Shown here: one piece after another, positions 1,433 to 31,121 of the stretch
Position numbering within the stretch: the stretch's first letter is position 1
Layout: every line of letters begins with the position of its first letter
Translations under genes and position numbers: made by a program
Origin: an uncultured Candidatus Berkelbacteria bacterium
GTDB lineage: Bacteria > Patescibacteriota > UBA1384 > UBA12157 > JAENIV01
DNA: 64,000 nt
NCBI GenBank assembly: GCA_963698075.1
Contig: OY969116.1
Span: 83,881 to 147,880 of the forward strand
Direction: 5' to 3'
The notes under the pieces: model-generated
Databases searched by the model: none
The model's input: the letters and a program-made list of their open reading frames with translations, nothing else
Told to the model about the DNA's origin: nothing

Positions 1433-1544
1433 GATTATCCTCCTACATGCTTACTGTCCAACCTACTACGTAGCGTACGGACAGTGCGCACTTCGGAGGA
1501 CTTCCTGGCAACGCTTCGCGTTGGCAGGAGCGGAAAGGAACAAA

Positions 1545-2204
1545 ATGGCAGACATTAAAAAAGAAGAAAAACAGGCAGAAAAAGAAGCGGAGGCAGAGGG
1601 GAAAATGGCAAAAGAGGCCTCCAAAGAAGAAGTGGCCGCCAGCCCGGATGAAACGACTCAGCCTGAAGCGGTGGTCGAAGAAGCCGCTGGTGTCGAAGAA
1701 GAAACCCCGGCCGAAGTTGAAGCAATTAATGTTGACAACGAGACGGCCAAAGAAGCGACTGAAGCTAAGATTGAAAAACCACAAGAAAAACCTAAGAAAG
1801 AAAAAAAGCCTGAACCTACTGGTAGGTTTAAGGATTTAATCAAGGAAATCGAGGGTTTAACCACGGTTGAATTAGCCGAGTTAGTTAAAGCTCTTGAGGA
1901 ACGTTTTGGAGTGTCAGCGGCTGCCCCCATGGCCATGGCTGGTGCGCCAGCGGCAGCCGGTGCCCCCGGCGCTGAAGCAGCTGAAGAAAAGGCAACTTAT
2001 ACAGTGGTTTTGGCTGATTCCGGCGCGCAAAAGATTGCCGTCATCAAGGCCCTTCGCGAGATTAACCAAGAGTTAGGTCTTAAGGAAGCCAAAGATATCG
2101 CCGATGCGCCGCCAAAAGAAATCCTCAAAGACGCTCCCAAAGAAAAAGCTGAAGACGCCAAGAAAAAGTTAGAAGCCGCTGGGGCAAAGGTTGAACTGAA
2201 GTAA
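1545..2204 (+). CDS. rplL: 50S ribosomal protein L7/L12 with an unusual ~95-aa E/K/A-rich N-terminal extension
   Basis: The C-terminal 120 aa ([33 protein letters not shown]...[12 protein letters not shown]) are canonical L7/L12. ATG 1545 is preceded by GGAAAGGA; the ORF track starts at TTG 1521. Confidence 0.85.
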
Positions 2205-2328: not shown

Positions 2329-3824
<1,496 letters not shown>

Positions 3825-3892: not shown

Positions 3893-4174
3893 TTGGATGA
3901 TTCTAGCCCTAAAGTAACGATCGGCGCCTACTTTAGCGGTCTAATGGCCATCGTGTGTTTGGTCATCAGCGTCTTGTCGCTAGTGTCAGTGATTTGGGTC
4001 ATCATCTACGGATCCTCCAAACAGATGATTGAGATTCTACCACCAATCCCATGGTTTGGGTGGCTAGCGTTGATGATTTTCGCTTACTGGGTTGGTCTGA
4101 AGTTTGACAGGTTGTCTGACGCACTTTGGCTAAAGCTTCCCGAGCAAGGTGCCGAAGACACATGCCGAGGATGA
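3893..4174 (+). CDS. small membrane protein (93 aa); the TTG start is uncertain
   Basis: two or three hydrophobic helices; its stop overlaps the next start as ATGA (4171-4174). Confidence 0.4.
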   Translation: MDDSSPKVTIGAYFSGLMAIVCLVISVLSLVSVIWVIIYGSSKQMIEILPPIPWFGWLALMIFAYWVGLKFDRLSDALWLKLPEQGAEDTCRG

Positions 4175-4407
4175 TTGGTGGCGTTATCTTCATCATTCTA
4201 CTTATCGTATTCTCATTCTTGGCCCTAGCTATCTGTATCGGACCTGATGAAGCTCCGCCGTGGCTTTACCTGGACTTAAGTTGGCCTTGGGTCTGGGTCA
4301 TTGATATCACGCTGTTCGTCGTTCTGAGCATCCTTGGGCCCCATCTCATCTGGCCAGGCCATTCCAAAGAGCCACCTACGGCAAATCAACAACAGAAGAA
4401 CACTTGA
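4171..4407 (+). CDS. small membrane protein (78 aa), translationally coupled to the upstream ORF
   Basis: MIGGVIFIILLIVFSFLALAICIG...; ATGA overlap; the track ORF 4126-4407 has an earlier in-frame start. Confidence 0.4.
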   Translation: MIGGVIFIILLIVFSFLALAICIGPDEAPPWLYLDLSWPWVWVIDITLFVVLSILGPHLIWPGHSKEPPTANQQQKNT

Positions 4408-4409
4408 TC

Positions 4410-4440
4410 AGGCCGCACCATATTTGGGCGGCCTTTCGTA
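4410..4440 (+). terminator. hairpin AGGCCGC-N11-GCGGCCT plus TTTCGT
   Basis: read in the sequence. Confidence 0.5.
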
Positions 4441-4453
4441 TAATTCTTTGCGA

Positions 4454-4482
4454 TTTACATATTATATTGAAAGTAGTATAAT
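4454..4482 (+). promoter_or_regulatory. sigma70 promoter TTTACA-17-TATAAT driving the 4512-10812 cluster
   Basis: hexamers and spacing read in the sequence. Confidence 0.5.
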
Positions 4483-4511
4483 GAATCTAAAGAATAGTTT
4501 TAGGAGGGATT

Positions 4512-4826
4512 GTGAACAGTCCTGATAAATTTGGTATAGGCAAGGGTCCAGAAGCACCGGCACCGCCACCAGTGGAAGGTCAGCCGGCGCCGGAGGTTCC
4601 GACGACCGAACAGCCGTCACCACCGTCAGCCGAAAGGGAAAAGATTAAAGGAAAACCTGGGGAAGAATTGGTCATTGCCGAACCGCCGCAGGTAGGGGAG
4701 ATTGCCCAAGAAAAACCAATTGAAACGCCAGCGCCGGCAAGACCAATAAACATCGGCGAACATGATTTAACAGGGGATATTGATATCGCCAGGGCAGACG
4801 AACTTCAAGAAGAAATAAATACTTAA
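4512..4826 (+). CDS. Pro/Glu-rich acidic hypothetical protein (104 aa)
   Basis: GTG start with AGGAGG 5 nt upstream; low-complexity PAPE repeats. Confidence 0.5.
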   Translation: MNSPDKFGIGKGPEAPAPPPVEGQPAPEVPTTEQPSPPSAEREKIKGKPGEELVIAEPPQVGEIAQEKPIETPAPARPINIGEHDLTGDIDIARADELQEEINT

Positions 4827-4848
4827 GGCAAAAATACAAGGAGGATTT

Positions 4849-7347
4849 TTGGAAGTAGGGAGTGATCTCTTTAATATCTTAATTACAGGCGGGTTTTTAG
4901 TTTTTGTCTTTATTTTGTCCTACCTTATTTATTCCGTTTACAAAGCTAATAAAATTAAGCATGAGCTCAAACGGGTTAAAAACTTAAGCATCTTTCAGAT
5001 TAGCATTCCGAGGACACCTCAAACGCCTAAGCAAAACGAACCGCCCAAAGATTTTCGGGAAACTATTGGCGTGGCCGATCAATTTTTTGCCTCCCTTGGT
5101 CATCTTTATGAAGGCAGTTTTGAGAAAAAATTATATGGTCTCCAAAGCCAAATTACCTTAGAAATCATTTCGTTAGACAATAAGCTGGAATTTTTCTCGA
5201 TCGTGCCCAAAGAGATTGAAAGCATCATCGAAAAACAGATTAATTCTTTCTATCCAACGGCCCAAATCCAAAAAACCGCCATTCCCAATATTTTTAAATC
5301 TCGTCAGGGGGCGATGCTCGCTACCAATTTTCGTTTGAATAAAAAATTTATCCTACCGATTCGGACATATAAATATCTTGAGGCTGATCCTTTAAATTCT
5401 CTGACCAATGCCTTATCAAAACTGGGGGCTGGTTCAGGGGCGGCCATCCAACTTATCGTTAAACCGACTACTGATGATTGGCGCAAAGCCGCCGGCATTG
5501 CCGCCCATAAGATTCAGCAAGGAAAATCCTTTGTCTCTGAGCGCTGGTATATGAAGATATTTCATTTTCTCTTTGAAATCCTCGGCGGCGTTTTTCATGG
5601 TTCAAAATCGACTACCACTCCTAAAACTTTAGGACCTGATTTCAAACAACCGGTGCAACTAACACCGATGCAGGAACAGACGCTTAAAGCCCTCAATGAA
5701 AAGGCCTCAAAAACTGGTCTTGGCACCAACATCAGGATTGTCGTGACCGCGCCCAACCACCAAGAGGCAATAGTTAATCTTAAAAACATCACCACTGCCT
5801 TTGGTCAATTTTCTACCCCTGAACTTAATGGTTTTAAGGCAAAAATCTCTGGCAACGAGGTAGTCCGTGATTACATTTTACGACGCTTTACGGGAAAGGG
5901 GATGATTCTTAATTCCGAAGAGTTGGCCTCAATTTGGCATCTGCCCACCCAATATGTTGAAAGTCCTAATATTGCCTGGGCCCAAGCCAAGGAAATGCCG
6001 CCGCCAACGAATTTGCCAGCCGAAGGAGTAATCTTGGGTGAAAGCGTTTATCGGGGTGAGAAAAAGCCGGTGAGGATCAAGGGTGATGACCGCCGTCGGC
6101 ATATCTTTATGATTGGTAAAACTGGCGTTGGTAAAACAACCTTGTTTTCCAACATGATTGAACAGGACATGAAAGCCGGCAATGGCTGTTGTTTTGTTGA
6201 TCCCTTGGGTGACGCCATCGAGGACCTTTTGGGCAAAGTCCCTCAGGAAAGAATCAACGATGTGATCCTTTTCGACCCCTCGGATACTGAAAACCCTGTC
6301 GGTTTAAATCTTTTAGAGTGGCAGACAGCTGACCAACGAGACTTTCTCATTCAAGAAGCAATCCAGATTTTCTATAAACTTTTTGACCCCACCCAGATGG
6401 GAATAGTTGGTCCTCAATGGGAACACTGGTTTCGTAACGCGGCCTTGACGATTATGAATCAACCAGGCGGGGGTACATTAATTGATGTTCCTAGAATCTT
6501 CACTGACGATGCTTTTCGCACTCGATTAATTTCCTCTGTTAGTGATCCAATTGTCAAGGCATTTTGGACGCAACAACTGGCGAAAACCGCTGATTTTCAT
6601 AAGTCTGAAATGTATAATTATTTTATTTCTAAGTTTGGCCGATTTATGACGAACGACCTGATGCGTAATATTATTGGACAGAAGAAATCATCTTTTAATT
6701 TAAGACAAGTAATGGATGAAGGTAAAATTCTTTTTATCAACTTAAGTAAAGGCAAAATTGGCGAAGTCAATTCCAATCTTTTAGGCATGATTTTGGTTTC
6801 TAAAATTCAAATGGCGGCTTTTTCGCGGGCTGACATGCCAGAGGACCAGCGCCGCGACTTTTATTTATATGTCGATGAGTTTCAAAACTTTACCACCGAT
6901 TCTTTTGCCAGCATTCTTTCTGAGGCAAGAAAATATCGCCTCAATTTGGCGATTACCAATCAATACATTGCTCAATTGACGGAAAAGATCCGCGATGCCG
7001 TTATTGGTAACGCGGGAACCATGATTTGTTACCGCATTGGCGCCGCTGATGCCGAGTTTATGGTTAAAGAATTTCCCGGGGTAACTATCGATGATTTAGC
7101 CAATTTGGATAAATTCAATACTTATACCAAACTTTTAATCGATGGGACGCCGACCAAACCCTTTAGTATGCGTGGCTTAAAATCAGCGCAGGCCAGTTCG
7201 TCTCAGATTAGAGAGCAGGCAAGGTCCTTTTCGCAAAAGACTCACGCTCGTCCAAAGAATCAAGTTGAAGCAGAACTGGCCCAACAACTTCAATCGATGG
7301 GTGAGCCGCCTAGCCCTGGAGCAAACGAGCCGATAAGGAATTTGTGA
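4849..7347 (+). CDS. membrane-anchored VirB4/TraC-like (AAA_10 / FtsK-HerA-superfamily) P-loop ATPase, 832 aa
   Basis: N-terminal TM. Walker A HIFMIGKTGVGKTT at about aa 425. Walker B YLYVDEFQNF. Arginine-finger-like SEARKYRLNLAITNQY. TTG start preceded by AAGGAGGA. Confidence 0.65.
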   Translation: MEVGSDLFNILITGGFLVFVFILSYLIYSVYKANKIKHELKRVKNLSIFQISIPRTPQTPKQNEPPKDFRETIGVADQFFASLGHLYEGSFEKKLYGLQSQITLEIISLDNKLEFFSIVPKEIESIIEKQINSFYPTAQIQKTAIPNIFKSRQGAMLATNFRLNKKFILPIRTYKYLEADPLNSLTNALSKLGAGSGAAIQLIVKPTTDDWRKAAGIAAHKIQQGKSFVSERWYMKIFHFLFEILGGVFHGSKSTTTPKTLGPDFKQPVQLTPMQEQTLKALNEKASKTGLGTNIRIVVTAPNHQEAIVNLKNITTAFGQFSTPELNGFKAKISGNEVVRDYILRRFTGKGMILNSEELASIWHLPTQYVESPNIAWAQAKEMPPPTNLPAEGVILGESVYRGEKKPVRIKGDDRRRHIFMIGKTGVGKTTLFSNMIEQDMKAGNGCCFVDPLGDAIEDLLGKVPQERINDVILFDPSDTENPVGLNLLEWQTADQRDFLIQEAIQIFYKLFDPTQMGIVGPQWEHWFRNAALTIMNQPGGGTLIDVPRIFTDDAFRTRLISSVSDPIVKAFWTQQLAKTADFHKSEMYNYFISKFGRFMTNDLMRNIIGQKKSSFNLRQVMDEGKILFINLSKGKIGEVNSNLLGMILVSKIQMAAFSRADMPEDQRRDFYLYVDEFQNFTTDSFASILSEARKYRLNLAITNQYIAQLTEKIRDAVIGNAGTMICYRIGAADAEFMVKEFPGVTIDDLANLDKFNTYTKLLIDGTPTKPFSMRGLKSAQASSSQIREQARSFSQKTHARPKNQVEAELAQQLQSMGEPPSPGANEPIRNL

Positions 7348-7416
7348 ATTGAAATATTTGCCTTTTTGTGATAAAATTATATCTCGGGATTGGCAAAAAC
7401 AAACAAAGGAAACAAA

Positions 7417-7968
7417 ATGCAACCATCGGATAAGAAGCTCAAAGAACTAAAAAATCTTCTTGATGAGGCCGAGTCTAAAGTTGCCGCCGCCAAAAGAATT
7501 CTTTTTGAACAAGTTTATCAAGAACAAGCTCTTAATTTAGAAGAGACTGGTAACAGTCAGAAAGGACCTAATACCATTGTTGAGGGAGTTTTTGATGGCG
7601 AGGAGATGATAGATTCGGGTGGTAAAAAATATCCCGTTCCTGCTAATTACGCCTCTAAATCAAAACTTATTCCTGGCGATAAGCTCAAGCTGACAATTGC
7701 CCCTGACGGCACCTTTATCTTCAAGCAAATTGGGCCGGTAGAAAGAAAAAGAATCGTCGGTAAACTCACGGAAAACAATGGCAATTATAAAGTCGTTGTC
7801 TCTGGCAAGAAATATAATTGTCTCAAAGCATCCGTCACCTACTTCCACGGCAGTCCGGGCGACGAGATAACCTGTATAGTCCCCAAAATAGGGGAGAGCG
7901 ACTGGGCGGCGATTGAAAATTGTCTAGGGAAAAAAACGCCGGCGAGCGGCAAAAAAAGATGCGATTGA
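7417..7968 (+). CDS. hypothetical protein (183 aa), coiled-coil N-terminus, Cys-containing C-terminus
   Basis: ATG 7417 preceded by AAAGGAAAC; the track starts at TTG 7390. Confidence 0.5.
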   Translation: MQPSDKKLKELKNLLDEAESKVAAAKRILFEQVYQEQALNLEETGNSQKGPNTIVEGVFDGEEMIDSGGKKYPVPANYASKSKLIPGDKLKLTIAPDGTFIFKQIGPVERKRIVGKLTENNGNYKVVVSGKKYNCLKASVTYFHGSPGDEITCIVPKIGESDWAAIENCLGKKTPASGKKRCD

Positions 7969-7992
7969 TGCGATTAATACGGTAAAAAAACG

Positions 7993-10812
7993 ATGGCAAT
8001 TTTAGAAACAATTGTTTTCCGAGGGTTAATGTATGCCATTTTGGTGGTAATACCGATTTTTTTAATTATTCTATATCTTAGGGCGCGGGCCAATAGAGCC
8101 AAGATGCAGTGGTTTGCTAATCTTAAATTTTTGACCATGAGAATCCTAGTTCCTAAAAATAATGAAAAGACCCCGCTGGCCGCCGAACAAATGTTTGCTG
8201 CTTTGCATGGGGTTTTCAGAAAAGAGAGTCAATTCCAAGATTATTTTTCCTTTGAAATTGCCTCGCGTGAAAAGTTTATTCAATTTTATGTTCATGTTCC
8301 TGAGCATCTTAAAGATTTTATTGAGGGCCAGATTTATTCGCAATATCCAACAGCGGAAATTACTCAAGTTGATGATTATACTTTAGAAGAACGAGAACAA
8401 ATTATCTCTGGCCAGTTCAAATTGGCTGGGACAGAATTAGGCTTGACTAATTTAGATGTTTATCCGATCAAAACCTTTCTTAATTTTGAAGTTGACCCCT
8501 TGGCGGGGATAACAGGCGTGCTTTCCAAACTTGAAAAGGGCGAAGAAATCTGGTTGCAAATTATTGTCAAACCAGTTTCCGACCTATGGCAGTCAAAGGG
8601 CATTGGTCATGTCAGATCGGTCAAGTCTGGGGCCACTAATCAGCAGGGGATATTCGTCGGAATTTTCGGCGCTTTTATAAGATTTTTAGGCGGTCTTCTT
8701 AGTGCCATTTTGACCGGGGTTACGCCGCCATCATCAAAAGAGGAAGCGCCCAAAGAAGAGGCTAAACTGCCAGGAACAGTTGAAGAAGGGCTTAAAGGTG
8801 TTGAAACTAAATCAACCAAACTCGGCTTTGAAACAAAAATCAGACTGCTGGCCTTGGCCACCGACGAAAACATCGCCAGATCAAAATTGGCCTCAACTGT
8901 GGCTGCCTTCAAACAATATAATTTGCTCAATTTGAATGGTTTCCAAGCCAGCAGTATCACCAACTCCTTGGCTTTTTACGATCAATATCGCTACCGGGCT
9001 TTTTTGGAGCCAGGTTATATTTTAAACATTGAAGAACTGGCCTCAATATTTCATTTGCCGAATGTTTCAGTGCAGACACCCAATATTGTTTGGGCGGGTT
9101 CCAAAAAAGGTGAACCCCCGGCTAATTTACCGATTGAAGAAAATGTCTTAAGTTCAGAACTAACTGTATTTGCCAAGACTGATTATCGACATCTGATGCA
9201 TAATTTCGGTATTAAATTATCGGATCGCCGTTATCACATGTATTCAATTGGCAAAACTGGCACTGGTAAAACAACCATGCTCGAAAACATGATTATTGAC
9301 GATATCCGCGAGGGTAGGGGAGTTGCCGTCGTTGACGCCCATGGGGACTTAATCAAAAAATTGCTTAACTATGTTCCCAGCGAAAGAATTAAAGACGTCG
9401 TTCTTTTTTCTCCGGCCGATCGTTTATATCCTCTCGGCTTTAATCCGCTCGAAAATGTTGATCCCGAGTTAAAAAATATTGTCGCCTCAGGCGTTGTCGG
9501 AATTTTTAAGAAAATATTTGGTGAATCCTGGGGACCACGGTTGGAATATATTTTGAGAAATACTATTTTGGCGCTCCTTGATTATCCCAATGCCACCATG
9601 CTCGGGATTACCAAAATTTTGGTTGACCAAGATTTTCGTAATCGTGTGATTGAAAAAATTCAGGATCCGGTGATTAAAGATTTTTTTGTTAATGAATACG
9701 AAAAATATGATCCGAAATTTCGGACTGAGGCCATCGCCCCGATTCAAAACAAAGTTGGCCAATTTTTATCATCATCAACCATCCGCAACATTGTTGGTCA
9801 GCCGAAATCAACCTTTAACATCGAAGAGATTATGAATACCGGCAAAATTATATTTATGGATTTATCAATTGGCGAAATTGGCGAAGACGCTTCAGCTCTT
9901 CTGGGCTCGATGATGATTACCAAAATTCAACTAGCAGCAATGCGACGGGCGACTATTCCCGAAGAAGAACGCAAAGATTTCTATTTATATGTTGACGAGT
10001 TCCAAAATTTTGCCACCGAATCTTTTGCGGTGATTTTATCTGAAGCTCGCAAATATCACCTGAATTTGATTATCACCCATCAATATATTGCTCAAGTTTC
10101 CGAAGAGGTCATGGCGGCTGTTTTTGGTAACTGTGGCACATTGGTTACTTTCCGTGTTGGCGCTCCTGACGCCGCCGCTTTGAAAAAAGAATATGAGCCG
10201 GTTTTTGAGGAAGTTGATTTAGTTAATTTAGATAATTATCATATCTACGTCAAAATGTCAATTGATGGCGTCACTTGTCCTGCTTTTTCGGCCGTCACTT
10301 TGCCTCCAGACAAGATGACTAATACCAATCGTGAAGCGATCCTTGCCCACTCACGCCAAAATTATTCCAAAAGGCGAGAATACGTTGAACAAAAAATGAC
10401 GGACCTAGCGGAAATGCCTAAAGTCGAACAAATCTTAACCAAGGCCGAGCGGGAGCGCATTCCCAAAATTCCGCCGAGAATAGGGGAGACCTATTATCGC
10501 GAAATCCAAACCCCGGGTGATGTTCGCTGGTATTTTGGTGGGGGAACAGTTGATCAGCCCCTGACCGAAGAGACGGTCCAAGAAAAATTAAAAAAACAAT
10601 TGGAAGAAACGCCAGATTGGATGAAGGAGCGACTCGCGGCTCTAGAAAAAAAAGATGATGGGGGAGAGGTGCCCGAAAAGATTGAAGATATTGAAGATTT
10701 AGAAAAAGATAAAGCAACGATGGTTTCGCATCTCGGTCCGTCGGAGAGCGGAAGTCGGATGTCAGATAGCAGTGTCCAACATCTCAAAGACGGTGAGACC
10801 ATTAAGTTGTAG
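7993..10812 (+). CDS. paralogous membrane-anchored VirB4/TraC-like P-loop ATPase, 939 aa
   Basis: Walker A YHMYSIGKTGTGKTT. Walker B YLYVDEFQNF. SEARKYHLNLIITHQY. The N-terminal domain shares motifs with the 4849-7347 protein (FxxLHGxxxxxxFSFEI, IxSQYPTAxI). Acidic C-terminal tail. Confidence 0.65.
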   Translation: MAILETIVFRGLMYAILVVIPIFLIILYLRARANRAKMQWFANLKFLTMRILVPKNNEKTPLAAEQMFAALHGVFRKESQFQDYFSFEIASREKFIQFYVHVPEHLKDFIEGQIYSQYPTAEITQVDDYTLEEREQIISGQFKLAGTELGLTNLDVYPIKTFLNFEVDPLAGITGVLSKLEKGEEIWLQIIVKPVSDLWQSKGIGHVRSVKSGATNQQGIFVGIFGAFIRFLGGLLSAILTGVTPPSSKEEAPKEEAKLPGTVEEGLKGVETKSTKLGFETKIRLLALATDENIARSKLASTVAAFKQYNLLNLNGFQASSITNSLAFYDQYRYRAFLEPGYILNIEELASIFHLPNVSVQTPNIVWAGSKKGEPPANLPIEENVLSSELTVFAKTDYRHLMHNFGIKLSDRRYHMYSIGKTGTGKTTMLENMIIDDIREGRGVAVVDAHGDLIKKLLNYVPSERIKDVVLFSPADRLYPLGFNPLENVDPELKNIVASGVVGIFKKIFGESWGPRLEYILRNTILALLDYPNATMLGITKILVDQDFRNRVIEKIQDPVIKDFFVNEYEKYDPKFRTEAIAPIQNKVGQFLSSSTIRNIVGQPKSTFNIEEIMNTGKIIFMDLSIGEIGEDASALLGSMMITKIQLAAMRRATIPEEERKDFYLYVDEFQNFATESFAVILSEARKYHLNLIITHQYIAQVSEEVMAAVFGNCGTLVTFRVGAPDAAALKKEYEPVFEEVDLVNLDNYHIYVKMSIDGVTCPAFSAVTLPPDKMTNTNREAILAHSRQNYSKRREYVEQKMTDLAEMPKVEQILTKAERERIPKIPPRIGETYYREIQTPGDVRWYFGGGTVDQPLTEETVQEKLKKQLEETPDWMKERLAALEKKDDGGEVPEKIEDIEDLEKDKATMVSHLGPSESGSRMSDSSVQHLKDGETIKL

Positions 10813-10862
10813 ATAGAATGTTAGTTTTAAGCGCCAGCGAGCTCATATCTTAAGAAGATTCA

Positions 10863-10887
10863 AACCTGTCCAACAGGTTATTTTTTT
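10863..10887 (+). terminator. AACCTGT-CCA-ACAGGTT-ATTTTTTT
   Basis: stem plus U7. Confidence 0.75.
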
Positions 10888-11381
10888 GTTACTCTGGTGG
10901 GGGAGAGGTCGAAAACAATTTTCAATTTGCAATTATCAATTATCATTTCAAAATGTGCCCTCATAATTCCACACCCGGCTAAAATGGGGGAAATGCAAAT
11001 TTGATGAATTTGAACTTCAATATTCTAAGACTTTTAAAAGCTCATAGATGGTCATTATAAAAGTGCTCCATAAGATAAACAACCTAATCAGTCGTAAAAC
11101 GGATATTGTGCGTCGCTTTGTAAATGCAGTCGCTCAATATTAGCCAGATTTTACAACGTATTTATAAATCTGGCTTAGTTTTATGCCATTGCAAAATTCC
11201 GTCCATTTATTTTTAGTCAGTGAGCTTGGGATTTCTTTAGACATTAGAAATTAGTCATTAGAAATTTTAAAACAATCCCCTATTTTACCAAGCCTATACT
11301 AAAAAAGTGACCAAATTGTCACGATTAAGCCCCAGGTACTATTTATATATTATAACCTGTTAATAATGTCTCTAAAAGCCC

Positions 11382-12296
11382 CTAGGACGCGACTTTTGCA
11401 GCCGCACGAGCTTTGCGTCGCGCGCTCCAACCCTGCCAACTAACTAACAAGGGCGAAGCGTTAAAAATTGATGAATAAGTGCCAATGGCGATGCCCACCA
11501 ACAATGCCAACATAAAATGTTTTAATGTTGCCCCGCCGAGCAAAAAAAGCGCCAGTAAAACCAACAAAACCGTAAACGAAGTATTCAAAGAGCGGTTTAA
11601 AGTTTGCAAAATACTATTATTAACATTAGTTTCAAAATCCAAAGAAGGGGATTTGCGTAGATTCTCGCGAATGCGATCAAAAACCACTATCGTATCGTGG
11701 ACTGAAAAACCCATAATTGTCAAAAGGGCAGTAATAAAAAGGGAATCGACTTCATAGCCGAAAAAATGTCCCAAAATCGCGAATGCCCCAACCACAAAAG
11801 CAAGGTCGTGAATTAAGGCTAAAACCGCACAAACGCCAAAGCGCCAGGAACTCGCCGGTTTAGGAACCTTGCGAAAAGCAATTGAGATATAAATAATAAT
11901 GGCGATTGAAGCCAAAATGACGGCGATGACGGCTTTTCGTTTCAAATCCGAGCTCACCGTCGGCCCCACCGTTTCTAGCCGGTTTTGTTTGTAGCCCTCC
12001 CCTACTTTGGCAAGCGCCTCGGTTAATTTATTTTGCGTTTCAGCATCTAAGACCGGCGTCCGAATGATAAAGTCATTCCCAGACGGTTGAACATTAACAT
12101 TTTTGATACCGTTACTGTTTATAACTTCATCAATTTTTGTTTTAGCAACACTATTACTATAGGAAATATCCAACAAGGTTCCGCCCTTAAAATCAAGCCC
12201 GGTTGGTATCCCCCAAAAAATTATTGCCAAAATTCCCGGCACAATTAAAATTAAAGAAATTAAATACCAAATTTTCCGTCGGCCAATAATGTTCAT
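11382..12296 (-). CDS. secF: protein translocase subunit SecF
   Basis: MNIIGRRKIWYLISLILIVPGILAIIFWGIPTGLDFKGG...; its ATG overlaps the secD stop as ATGA (12293-12296). Confidence 0.85.
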   Translation of the reverse strand: MNIIGRRKIWYLISLILIVPGILAIIFWGIPTGLDFKGGTLLDISYSNSVAKTKIDEVINSNGIKNVNVQPSGNDFIIRTPVLDAETQNKLTEALAKVGEGYKQNRLETVGPTVSSDLKRKAVIAVILASIAIIIYISIAFRKVPKPASSWRFGVCAVLALIHDLAFVVGAFAILGHFFGYEVDSLFITALLTIMGFSVHDTIVVFDRIRENLRKSPSLDFETNVNNSILQTLNRSLNTSFTVLLVLLALFLLGGATLKHFMLALLVGIAIGTYSSIFNASPLLVSWQGWSARRKARAAAKVAS

Positions 12297-13567
12297 TTGA
12301 TCACCAATCTTTTTTCCAAAAATGTGCCAATCGCCAATCTTAAAAATGTTCGCGTAACAATAATGGCGGTAAACATTGAAACAAGAATTCCAATTGCCAA
12401 GGTCACTGCAAAACCGCGAACCAAACCGGATGTCCCATAATAAAGAATTGCGCACGTAATCAATGAAGAAAAATTAGAATCGCGAATTGACGGCCAGGCT
12501 CGCTTGAAACCTTCTTCGATTGATAAACCAATGGTTTTACCGGCGGCTAATTCTTCTTTGGTTCTTTCAAAAATTAAAATATTGGCATCAACCGCCATGC
12601 CTACCGACAAAATGAACCCTGCAATACCGGCTAAAGTCAGAGTGACAGGGATTAGTTTAAATAATGCCAAAATCACCAGCGTATAAATAAAAAGTGCCAA
12701 AATAGCTAAAAGTCCGGGGACGCGATAATAAATAATCATAAATAAGGCTACCAGCAACAAACCAATGATGCCGGCCATCAAAGATTTCTGGACTGACTCG
12801 GAGCCCAAAGTTGGCCCAATGGTACGTTGTTCTACTAAAGAGATTGGCACGGGCAAGGCTCCGGCGTTAAGTTCGATCGCCAGTTGTTTGGCCTCCTCAA
12901 TCGTAAATTTACCTGTAATCACCGCTTGACCATTTTCAATGGCACTTTGGACTGTCGGCGCGGAAATAATTTCATTATCTAATTCAATGGCCACTGGTTT
13001 TTGTAAATTATTGCGAGTGATGTCAGCAAAAAGTTTCGTCCCTTCACTGTCAAATTGAATGGCGACTTGGGGTTCACCGGTGTTTTTGTCGAACTGAACG
13101 TCCGCGCGTCGAAGATGGGCGCCTGTTAACCCTGTATCTTTCCAAATATCTTGTTCACTGGTCGCCTCAGGATTTTCTTCTAAAAATTTTAGTTGAGCGG
13201 TTTTACCGATCAAATTAATTGCTTCTCCAACATCGGTCACGCCTGGTAATTCAACGATCACCGCCTGCTTGCCGCCAATTTTTGCCCCTTGAATTACGGG
13301 TTCAGCCACACCCAAGGCGTTGACCCGACGATCAATCACGTTGACGACTGATTGGGTGGCGGTTGAGACATCTTCTGATTGGAGCCCGGAGGTATCAAGT
13401 TCAAAAACCAAATGGGCCCCACCTTGTAAATCCAAACCTTCGTGAATTTTAAGTTCTTTAAAAAAACTGCCGATAGAAATATTTGGGCCAGTCGGCCAAT
13501 CAACCAAACCCGCCAGAATCGTTAGCACCAAAATGATGCCAAAAATTATCCAAATATTGCGTCGCAA
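12293..13567 (-). CDS. secD: protein translocase subunit SecD
   Basis: MRRNIWIIFGIILVL...GLDLQGGAHLVFELD...; 424 aa with 12 TM helices. Confidence 0.9.
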   Translation of the reverse strand: MRRNIWIIFGIILVLTILAGLVDWPTGPNISIGSFFKELKIHEGLDLQGGAHLVFELDTSGLQSEDVSTATQSVVNVIDRRVNALGVAEPVIQGAKIGGKQAVIVELPGVTDVGEAINLIGKTAQLKFLEENPEATSEQDIWKDTGLTGAHLRRADVQFDKNTGEPQVAIQFDSEGTKLFADITRNNLQKPVAIELDNEIISAPTVQSAIENGQAVITGKFTIEEAKQLAIELNAGALPVPISLVEQRTIGPTLGSESVQKSLMAGIIGLLLVALFMIIYYRVPGLLAILALFIYTLVILALFKLIPVTLTLAGIAGFILSVGMAVDANILIFERTKEELAAGKTIGLSIEEGFKRAWPSIRDSNFSSLITCAILYYGTSGLVRGFAVTLAIGILVSMFTAIIVTRTFLRLAIGTFLEKRLVIK

Positions 13568-30475: not shown

Positions 30476-30700
30476 TTAAAAAATCCTTAGCTTCGGTCAT
30501 TCATAGATTGCTAAGGAATTGCCTTTCGACCGAAGGACTTAATACAAAAATTTAAAGTTTTCTGGCTTGTCCTGAGCGAACGAAGTGAGTCGAAGGGCTT
30601 ATTCCTCGACTTTGCTCGGAATAAATCTTTCGTTTTGCTCAAGATTTACAGTAGCGTGACTGCCCCGGATTTCCACCGGGATTACCCTTAAATTTAGGTT
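30476..30700 (-). promoter_or_regulatory. cobalamin (B12) riboswitch-like leader with a terminator attenuator, 5' of the DUF4430 gene
   Basis: The minus-strand RNA GGGUAAUCCCGGUGGAAAUCCGGGGCAGUCACGCUACUGUAA (plus coordinates 30648-30687) matches the cobalamin aptamer core (GGUG.GAA.UCC...GCAG...CGCUACUGU). A partial B12-box AAGCCAGAA lies at 30568-30579. The terminator CCTTAGC...GCTAAGG plus U6 ends 9 nt before the RBS. Confidence 0.55.
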
Positions 30701-30716
30701 GAATTATTAAAGTGAA

Positions 30717-31121
30717 TTATTGTAGCTTCTCGAATCGCCAGTCGATTTTGTCGTTATTTTTAGTCTGGTACTGATCAGAACTAACCGAAGCCAGCTCGTT
30801 ATTGACATAAAACATCCAGTAGCTGTCATTGGTATTGGCCGTACCATCGATTGAGGTGACAAAGACACCCATAGAGGAATCCTCTGCTTTGACATCGTGG
30901 CTGGCTTTCAAAATATCCAAGGCAGTTTTGCCCTCTTGACCATCATAAGCAAGAGTCTTTTCGACTACCGGCTGAAATTGATTGGCAATGCCCGAGACTG
31001 TTTTGTTCACCTGTTTTTTGGAAACATAATTTCCGAGCAGACTGCCGCCAATAATCAAAATTGCCCCCAAAATGATAATGGCAATAAGATTCAACAGTCC
31101 CCATGAGTTCTTCTCAGACAT
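30717..31121 (-). CDS. DUF4430-like small membrane-anchored protein (134 aa)
   Basis: GKTALDILKASHDVKAEDSSMGVFVTSIDGTANTNDSYWMFYVNNELASVSSDQYQTKNNDKIDWRF. Confidence 0.6.
   Translation of the reverse strand: MSEKNSWGLLNLIAIIILGAILIIGGSLLGNYVSKKQVNKTVSGIANQFQPVVEKTLAYDGQEGKTALDILKASHDVKAEDSSMGVFVTSIDGTANTNDSYWMFYVNNELASVSSDQYQTKNNDKIDWRFEKLQ

Follow-up and report, generated by a model that had tools for sequence, protein, structure and literature searches.

Two paralogous membrane-anchored ATPases with a VirB4-like N-terminal domain and a coupling-protein-like motor at a core chromosomal locus of a Candidatus Berkelbacteria bacterium

The locus described here lies in a 64,000-nucleotide stretch of DNA (64 kb, hereafter the window) of an uncultured Candidatus Berkelbacteria bacterium (assembly GCA_963698075.1, contig OY969116.1, positions 83,881 to 147,880 of the forward strand), where six consecutive genes, g1 to g6, are encoded on the same strand. 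Two of them, g4 and g6, encode large ATPases that, judged by their sequences, form a branch of their own within the lineage of type IV secretion ATPases. A sequence-only reading of the region had described one promoter and one terminator bracketing six genes, the first two of them ATGA-coupled, and had proposed that they encode a minimal machine centred on two VirB4/TraC-like ATPases. Its observations are mostly correct and its interpretation is partly supported. All six open reading frames (ORFs) were found where it had placed them, the overlap between g1 and g2 is visible in the sequence and the terminator at 10863 is present as a hairpin; the promoter, in contrast, falls between g2 and g3. 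This site is probably, from its sequence, the start of the unit and it cannot drive g1 and g2, so that the unit under its possible control comprises g3 to g6. A GC hairpin with a T-rich tail is also seen in the sequence 3′ of g2, at approximately 4410-4440. The features of the locus are as follows.

3893-4174, + strand: g1, 93 amino acids (aa), small hydrophobic protein with a transmembrane (TM) segment; outside the conserved module
4171-4407, + strand: g2, 78 aa from ATG, two hydrophobic helices; clade-specific, outside the conserved module
4454-4482, + strand: promoter-like site of the sigma-70 type, TTTACA, 17-nt spacer, TATAAT; 11 of 12 matches, the best of the region
4512-4826, + strand: g3, 104 aa, acidic, Pro/Glu-rich, probably disordered
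4849-7347, + strand: g4 (A-type ATPase), 832 aa; TM helix, DUF8128 (like the VirB4 N-terminal domain), NTPase resembling type IV coupling proteins (T4CPs)
4876-4932, + strand: predicted N-terminal TM anchor of g4, aa 10-28, from hydropathy and flank charges; helix at aa 3-44 in the model
4981-6048, + strand: DUF8128 domain of g4, approximately aa 45-400; fold like that of the VirB4 N-terminal domain
6076-7188, + strand: T4CP-like NTPase of g4 with inserted helical region; Walker A 6115-6141, Walker B 6862-6891
7349-7377, before g5: second promoter-like site, 10 of 12 matches, with TG
7417-7968, + strand: g5, 183 aa from ATG; conserved partner of the A-type ATPase
7993-10812, + strand: g6 (B-type ATPase), 939 aa; TM helix, DUF8128, T4CP-like NTPase, 150-aa acidic C-terminal tail
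9250-9276 and 9982-10011, + strand: Walker A and Walker B of g6
10863-10879, + strand: terminator-like hairpin followed by a T run; closes the g3-g6 unit
11382-13567, − strand: secF and secD, convergent with g6; syntenic context, not shown to be a functional part

The g4 and g6 proteins share 37% identity over 823 aa (BLASTP, E 3e-165), far beyond chance, and by this comparison they are clearly paralogues, as had been claimed for the tandem P-loop ATPases. The Walker A motif (GKTGVGKTT at aa 423-431 of g4, GKTGTGKTT at aa 420-428 of g6) sits at about aa 425, as previously read, and Walker B (YLYVDEFQNF) occupies aa 672-681 and aa 664-673, respectively. Among the motifs that the two proteins had been said to share, Walker A, Walker B, SEARKY(R/H)LNL(A/I)IT(N/H)QY and YPTAxI were found in both, whereas FxxLHGxF is present in g6 only, its counterpart in g4 being FASLGHLY. 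A comparison of 14 sequences spanning both paralogues revealed no variation in Walker A, in Walker B or at many positions of the motor, whose helical insertion is extremely conserved. Hydropathy gave a single N-terminal TM helix in each large protein, in agreement with the sequence-only reading, with lysine and arginine residues on the C-terminal flank (0 versus 5 in g4), a distribution that predicts an N-out/C-in orientation with the remainder of both proteins in the cytoplasm. A strongly hydrophobic helix was also noticed within DUF8128, at aa 222-240 of g6 (window 8656-8712) and aa 233-249 of g4, where it is followed by a loop of low confidence (predicted local distance difference test, pLDDT, below 50 at aa 256-263). 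By hydropathy it would count as a second TM segment in g6 and several homologues, an assignment that was rejected because it would leave the ATPase outside the cell. A helix is also present at the equivalent position of the g4 model. The element may dip into the membrane.

The DUF8128 domain, of approximately 350 aa, is located between the TM helix and Walker A. Precomputed Pfam matches to PF26449 (DUF8128) exist for g4, g6 and all 120 homologues listed, and nothing was found in the literature under ‘PF26449’ or ‘DUF8128’. In the structure model, the domain of g4 has the fold of the VirB4 N-terminal domain, with which it shares only 10% identity. The N-terminal domain of R388 VirB4 contacts VirB3 and VirB8, and a domain of this type is thus a plausible docking module.

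The motor is, by sequence, a coupling-protein (TrwB/TraD/VirD4)-type NTPase rather than a VirB4-type one. In Pfam, g4 matched PF10412 (35.4 bits, cut-off 20.5), PF02534 (32.6 bits, cut-off 20.1) and PF12696 (22.4 bits, cut-off 22.0), and g6 matched PF10412 (41.6 bits over aa 412-728) and PF12696 (23.6 bits). The matches to T4CP models (TrwB_AAD_bind, T4SS-DNA_transf, TraG-D_C and TIGR03743 TraD) had E values from 1e-8 to 1e-16, and further NCBIfam matches were to TIGR03754 TraD and to the CD1115 VirD4-like family. A phmmer search identified TrwB (1e9r) as the closest solved relative by sequence, aligned over aa 411-711, and the family alignment profile, when compared with PDB sequences, gave RecA polyproteins as top matches, through the P-loop only. 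Neither g4 nor g6 matched the VirB4 models AAA_10 (PF12846) and CagE_TrbE_VirB (PF03135) at E up to 1, and the matches to TIGR00929 (E 0.003, 15.7 bits against a cut-off of 643, restricted to the Walker A region at aa 418-445) and TIGR02746 (E 0.016) were marginal at best. The VirB4/TraC assignment of the ATPases therefore did not survive the comparison with hidden Markov models (HMMs): the VirB4-like layout, with its VirB4-type N-terminal domain, stands, and the motor is of the coupling-protein type. No match to the FtsK_SpoIIIE Pfam model was obtained at E up to 1, DUF87 (the HerA central domain) was matched weakly (24.7 bits in g6, cut-off 23.2), and PADLOC returned only weak mad8 and HerA matches and no convincing defence system.

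The combination of a VirB4-type N-terminal domain with a T4CP-type motor makes g4 and g6 hybrids in architecture. They resemble TrwB of R388, TraD and VirD4, their best HMM and PDB sequence matches, in having an N-terminal membrane anchor and a Walker A/B P-loop motor with a helical insertion. They differ from them in that the anchor consists of one TM helix instead of two and is not directly joined to the nucleotide-binding domain, from which it is separated by the extra VirB4-like domain, and in that two paralogues per genome occur in core synteny without nearby genes for a relaxase or a type IV secretion system (T4SS). Unlike VirB4, TrwK and TraC, they carry a TM helix of their own and match VirB4 models only at Walker A. 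With FtsK/SpoIIIE and HerA they share the P-loop superfamily and the weak DUF87 match, but the N-terminal architecture is different, with a single TM helix instead of a polytopic domain, no FtsK motor domain is matched, and there is no NurA partner gene.

Relatives outside Patescibacteria were found on plasmids and in phages. A tblastn search against plasmids recovered relatives covering aa 99-775 in plasmids of Bacillus, Clostridium, Streptomyces, haloarchaea and Sulfolobus. The Bacillus homologue is an 885-aa ‘DUF87 domain-containing protein’ (WP_345805471.1) on plasmids of 24-28 kb, and in a 27.5-kb B. subtilis plasmid its gene is followed by a Replic_Relax relaxase, ‘conjugal transfer’ genes and an 847-aa AAA_10 VirB4. 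Profile comparison by hhalign aligned the family with the 885-aa protein over DUF8128 as well as the motor (probability 100%, E 5e-41, columns 53-782) and gave a probability of 0.7% with the VirB4 of the same operon, which indicates that this architecture fills the coupling-protein slot in a monoderm conjugation operon. The window copies differ from the plasmid one in being chromosomal and duplicated and in having other partners. A pLS20-like identity of these plasmids was rejected because the T4CP of pLS20 is canonical, with two TM helices (PMC8557374). Further, the phage family phrog_5156 matched over its full length (aa 79-819 against positions 56-813 of an 824-position profile, E 4e-92, 20-24% identity); it occurs in large lytic Bacillus phages, including phage G (gp156), CP-51, Shanette, SP-10 and SPO1-like phages, a context unlike that of the chromosomal copies. 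The gene for gp156 of phage G is at 90958-93093, and these lytic myophages thus carry full-length DUF8128 plus ATPase proteins of unknown function.

Within Patescibacteria, homologues are very numerous: the g6 query recovered 24,147 clusters at 50% identity with E up to 1e-3. A set of 80 g4-type loci was obtained from metagenome-assembled genomes (MAGs) labelled Saccharibacteria, Doudna-, Kazan-, Magasanik-, Uhr-, Levy-, Woese-, Peri-, Gracili-, Gottesman-, Davies-, Roizman- and Moranbacteria, and housekeeping neighbours were found throughout. The gene order rplA-rplJ-rplL-tgt-[small ORFs]-A-g5-B-secF-secD-manC recurs unchanged in the complete Berkelbacteria genome CP011213 (915 kb, locus L083), at approximately 60% identity, and also in a 92%-identical relative (locus L082). 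The further large genes of the window that were scanned are likewise housekeeping ones (SbcCD, GuaA, RNR, FtsA, MgsA, HisRS and RelA), and no VirB4, VirB6, VirB8 or relaxase was present among the genes scanned in the 64 kb. Neither VirB3, VirB6 nor VirB8 was encoded in the cluster, among the scanned window genes or at the 80 loci; integrase and relaxase genes were absent from the cluster and from the scanned window genes, and the GC content of the cluster is typical of its flanks. The conserved order and the housekeeping neighbours place the locus in the core chromosome and not in a mobile element. Many MAG records with a Patescibacteria-type locus (L013, L016, L020, L025, L029 and others) are titled ‘uncultured Gammaproteobacteria bacterium’, one is titled Methylomirabilota and one Nevskiaceae; all of these are probably mislabelled bins.

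Among the 150 best representatives retrieved with g6, 131 are closer by score to g6 than to g4, which makes the B type a separate orthologous group, and by these sequence comparisons A (g4) and B (g6) are two ancient paralogues. B-type clusters mostly have representatives without names. Their motors are 70-84% identical across genomes labelled Kerfeld-, Veblen-, Uhr- and Parcubacteria, where the B type is split into a DUF8128-only and an ATPase-only gene, and the pair is preceded by a protein with Sigma70_r4 and HARE-HTH domains and by secD-secF. Linkage of secF/secD to the B-type ATPase was seen at L082, L083, L087 and L088. The Sigma70_r4/HARE-HTH gene (approximately 345-377 aa) lies between g5 and B at L003, L004 and L006; in the window, no such gene separates g5 from g6. 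The direct A-g5-B array was found only in the Berkelbacteria-like relatives of the window (L002-L006, L082 and L083); a Kazan locus (L012) has a g6-type copy approximately 10 kb upstream of the A-type gene, and the remaining loci have only the A type within the stretch examined. In the Kerfeldbacteria-like loci L087 (8321-12181) and L088 (8573-11911), the DUF8128-only protein has 473-551 aa and the ATPase-only protein 636-726 aa; together with the Sigma70_r4/HARE-HTH gene upstream, the stretches are 7157-12181 and 7445-11911, respectively, with secDF adjacent. The ATPase-only gene often encodes a C-terminal zinc-ribbon (PF23477), and a third paralogue of 750 aa is located directly downstream in L087.

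The gene between the two ATPases, g5, adjoins the A-type ATPase at 22 of the 80 loci; counting only the 63 with at least 1.5 kb of downstream sequence, it does so at 18. Its model displays a long N-terminal helix (aa 3-41) and two OB-fold-like barrels (aa 53-106 and 110-171), so that g5 is probably a coiled-coil plus double-OB-fold protein, a nucleic-acid-binding type of fold. It belongs to a large family without a Pfam domain (7,877 of 8,000 scored candidates). Two Berkelbacteria homologues, P0199 and P0204, bear the UniRef name ‘50S ribosomal protein L7/L12’, which finds support in neither sequence nor model and is probably a misannotation.

The small proteins upstream of g4 fall on either side of the promoter-like site, and iterated HMM searches with g1, g2 and g3 across the 80 loci returned only the contig of the window; pairwise BLAST against the closest relatives was needed to recover g2 and g3. 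For g1, no homologue was found in the 80 loci or in close relatives, and for g2 the only one was in the 92%-identical relative (46% identity, E 1e-17). The product of g3 is the Pro/Glu-rich acidic protein that had been described (P 18%, E 15%, pI 4.3, net charge −12); it is 55% identical to its homologue in L082 and matches a 108-aa protein of CP011213 marginally (E 1e-3). A small protein rich in P/E/Q/S/T/A is encoded directly 5′ of the A-type ATPase at nearly every locus, and g3 is the positional counterpart of this low-complexity protein, which occurs phylum-wide. In 59 loci, the ORFs at this position had a P/E/Q/S/T/A fraction of 0.43 against a background of 0.32 (p 2e-19) and were more acidic than background (p 5e-6). 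The upstream proteins sort into clade-specific families, one of which (at L011, L013, L014, L017, L018, L027, L041, L045, L049, L058, L079 and L080) carries the conserved C-terminal motif WLKxIPGVNKFFLEQEAKIK(T/A)DKI after a disordered acidic N-terminus and has no known domain.

Members of this family have already been counted. Quinonero-Coronel et al. (2025) reported 5,713 VirD4-like T4CPs in 2,918 of 3,035 Patescibacteria genomes, with VirB4 in 2,417 genomes and only 148 of the 5,713 T4CPs near virB4 (PMC12102498); approximately two T4CPs per genome would, in our estimation, fit the A/B pair. The same authors recorded the S. epibionticum homologue as non-essential and raised exaptation as a possibility (PMC12102498). 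Wang et al. (2023) stated that the essential T4SS of S. epibionticum ‘lacks recognizable coupling protein’ (PMC10633639). Their tables contain two proteins of this architecture, SEML1_0142 and SEML1_0293, both encoded away from the T4SS and both flagged as core and Patescibacteria-enriched (PMC10633639). SEML1_0142 (1019 aa, P-loop region at aa 381-800) was essential at all time points (Tables S1 and S2), with 114 insertions in the input DNA and then 11, 11 and 9 recovered; SEML1_0141, the 139-aa protein upstream of it, was also essential (9 input insertions, 0 recovered). SEML1_0293 (921 aa) was non-essential, and SEML1_0294, upstream of it (annotated as RpoS; Sigma70_r4/HARE-HTH), was essential by transposon sequencing (PMC10633639). 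By length and synteny, SEML1_0142 corresponds to the Saccharibacteria-type A loci L021, L030, L040, L044 and L046, where an ATPase of 892-1032 aa, closer to g4, follows a protein of 136-148 aa, and SEML1_0293 corresponds to the B unit. If this orthology holds, the ‘non-essential t4cp’ is the B type and the A type is essential in S. epibionticum, the only species amenable to genetics.

Taken together, the reading that we prefer, with a probability of roughly 0.55, is that g3 to g6 form a core-chromosomal operon whose A and B ATPases are membrane-docked, ATP-driven translocases or substrate receptors of the VirB4/VirD4 lineage. The ATPases would assemble as oligomers at the cytoplasmic face of the membrane, presumably hexamers by analogy, with the TM helix and the VirB4-like domain providing the attachment. 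A single-stranded nucleic acid would most likely be the substrate; g5 may bind it and hand it over to the ATPase, as its modelled fold suggests, and the acidic, disordered g3 could act as adaptor or regulator. The unit may act alone or feed into the T4SS of the monoderm type present elsewhere in the genomes of most Patescibacteria. The locus itself is no conjugative element and no self-contained minimal T4SS. Several points weigh against this reading. The full-length phage homologues imply that the family is not restricted to conjugation or to any one process. Several T4CP matches are short or barely above the Pfam thresholds, and every one of them, including that to TIGR03743 TraD (E 2.6e-16), is far below the NCBIfam equivalog cut-off; the T4CP-like, not VirB4-like, classification is drawn from sequence profiles only. 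Since g5 is limited to approximately one quarter to one third of the loci and is not found in Saccharibacteria-type loci, it would be no universal part of the mechanism. Finally, SEML1_0142 was assigned as the orthologue of g4 on the grounds of length, domain position and synteny, and not by sequence comparison.

The ATPases may work with a T4SS or independently. One possibility, which we regard as rather unlikely, is that A and/or B act as the T4CP that is otherwise missing, bringing substrates to the essential T4SS of the monoderm type encoded elsewhere, consisting of VirB4, VirB3, VirB6 and VirB2-like pilins, on which the VirB4-like domain would dock. This is favoured by the T4CP homology of the motors, by the full-length relative at the T4CP position of the Bacillus conjugation operon, by the docking domain itself, and by the fact that the S. 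epibionticum T4SS has no recognisable coupling protein, with SEML1_0142 being essential like the T4SS genes (PMC10633639). Independent action is favoured by a spread wider than that of VirB4 (2,918 versus 2,417 genomes) and the rarity of virB4 linkage (PMC12102498), by the lack of T4SS genes among those scanned in the window, by homologues in lytic phages that have no T4SS, and by conserved partner genes of their own, given that neither the OB-fold protein nor the Sigma70_r4/HARE-HTH protein is a T4SS component. A bolder version, which we consider doubtful, is that A and B together with g5 constitute a Patescibacteria-wide, T4SS-independent import motor that would draw single-stranded RNA or DNA of the host through the cytoplasmic membrane, the family being a surviving intermediate between VirB4 and VirD4; a 2026 preprint described feeding on host RNA by a cultivated Patescibacterium and left the uptake step unresolved (bioRxiv 10.64898/2026.06.21.733656).

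Three further explanations are less likely than the membrane-docked translocase or receptor. T4CPs and FtsK belong to one superfamily, and g4 and g6 might be FtsK/SpoIIIE-like membrane-anchored DNA pumps for chromosome segregation or dimer resolution at division, an idea that gains from the neighbours of A-type genes at the 80 loci (a XerC/D-like recombinase at 14, dnaX at 12 and an FtsB-like protein at 8) and from the essentiality of the gene assigned to the A type, SEML1_0142. It is nonetheless improbable: the FtsK_SpoIIIE model was not matched, these neighbours are ordinary core genes that may be linked to the ATPase simply through synteny, the OB-fold partner suggests a nucleic acid that is single-stranded, not double-stranded, and TM7x has been reported to possess its own annotated ftsK (PMC10768705). 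Even less credit can be given to the self-contained VirB4/TraC machine of the sequence-only reading, in which two VirB4-like ATPases would operate with g1 and g2 as pilin- or VirB3-like parts. Its appeal came from the VirB4-like fold of the N-terminal domain, the TM anchor and the VirB4-like position of Walker A, but the motor neither matches VirB4 HMMs nor aligns with Gram-positive VirB4, and no channel component such as VirB6 or VirB8 is encoded nearby at the 80 loci or among the scanned window genes, the latter also being free of relaxase genes. The pilin-sized proteins fare no better, given that a Pfam scan gave no VirB2 or VirB3 match for g1 or g2, both lie outside the promoter-defined unit, and the small ORFs are not kept beside the ATPases in relatives, contrary to what the proposal needed; it is largely refuted. 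Last, it is barely conceivable that the unit is what domestication has left of an integrated conjugative or phage element and now lacks a cellular function. The nearest relatives outside the candidate phyla radiation are indeed on plasmids and phages, the latter matching over the full length, but the motifs are intact in both paralogues, the B-type motors have remained 70-84% identical across candidate phyla, core synteny and flank-like GC content are kept, integrase and relaxase are absent from the cluster and the scanned window genes, and the A-type gene, as assigned, is essential.

Other features were noticed in the window. Between rplL (1521-2204) and tgt (2688-3824), a GC-rich island at 2290-2690 on the + strand (57-63% against approximately 42% in the flanks) contains long ORFs in several frames of both strands. 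As RNA, its + strand is unusually stable (z = −5.6, 0 of 100 shuffles as stable), with a strong GC hairpin just 5′ of tgt; it has no Rfam match, and just 53 nt of it are conserved in the 92% relative. The island may correspond to a structured RNA not described so far or to a small gene that evolves rapidly. The L7/L12 ORF at 1521-2204 (+) encodes 227 aa with an N-terminal Lys/Glu/Ala-rich extension of approximately 100 aa, which seems to be conserved in the clade, the L12 genes of L082 and L083 encoding 221 and 206 aa. The sole Rfam match of the window is a cobalamin riboswitch (RF00174) at 30537-30731 on the − strand (33.1 bits, gathering score 31.5), and no tRNA genes were found in the 64 kb.

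Patescibacteria account for much of bacterial diversity; they live on other cells and are unable to make nucleotides, lipids or most amino acids, and how macromolecules are transported across their envelope is an open question. The family of g4 and g6 is annotated in databases but uncharacterised and, as far as we could find, its architecture, the A/B split, the partners and the link to essentiality have apparently not been described before. What had been only counted as ‘T4CP homologues, possibly exapted’ is a near-universal chromosomal ATPase family in which each paralogue has its own conserved partner genes and no linkage to relaxase or T4SS loci. The hybrid of a VirB4 N-terminal domain and a T4CP motor bears on how VirB4 and VirD4 diverged. 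If the import motor were real, it would feed nucleotide-auxotrophic cells and fill the uptake step of host-RNA feeding (bioRxiv 10.64898/2026.06.21.733656). In conclusion, the proteins of the g3-g6 unit and their relatives offer testable candidates for the missing component that energises macromolecule transport in Patescibacteria or receives its substrates.

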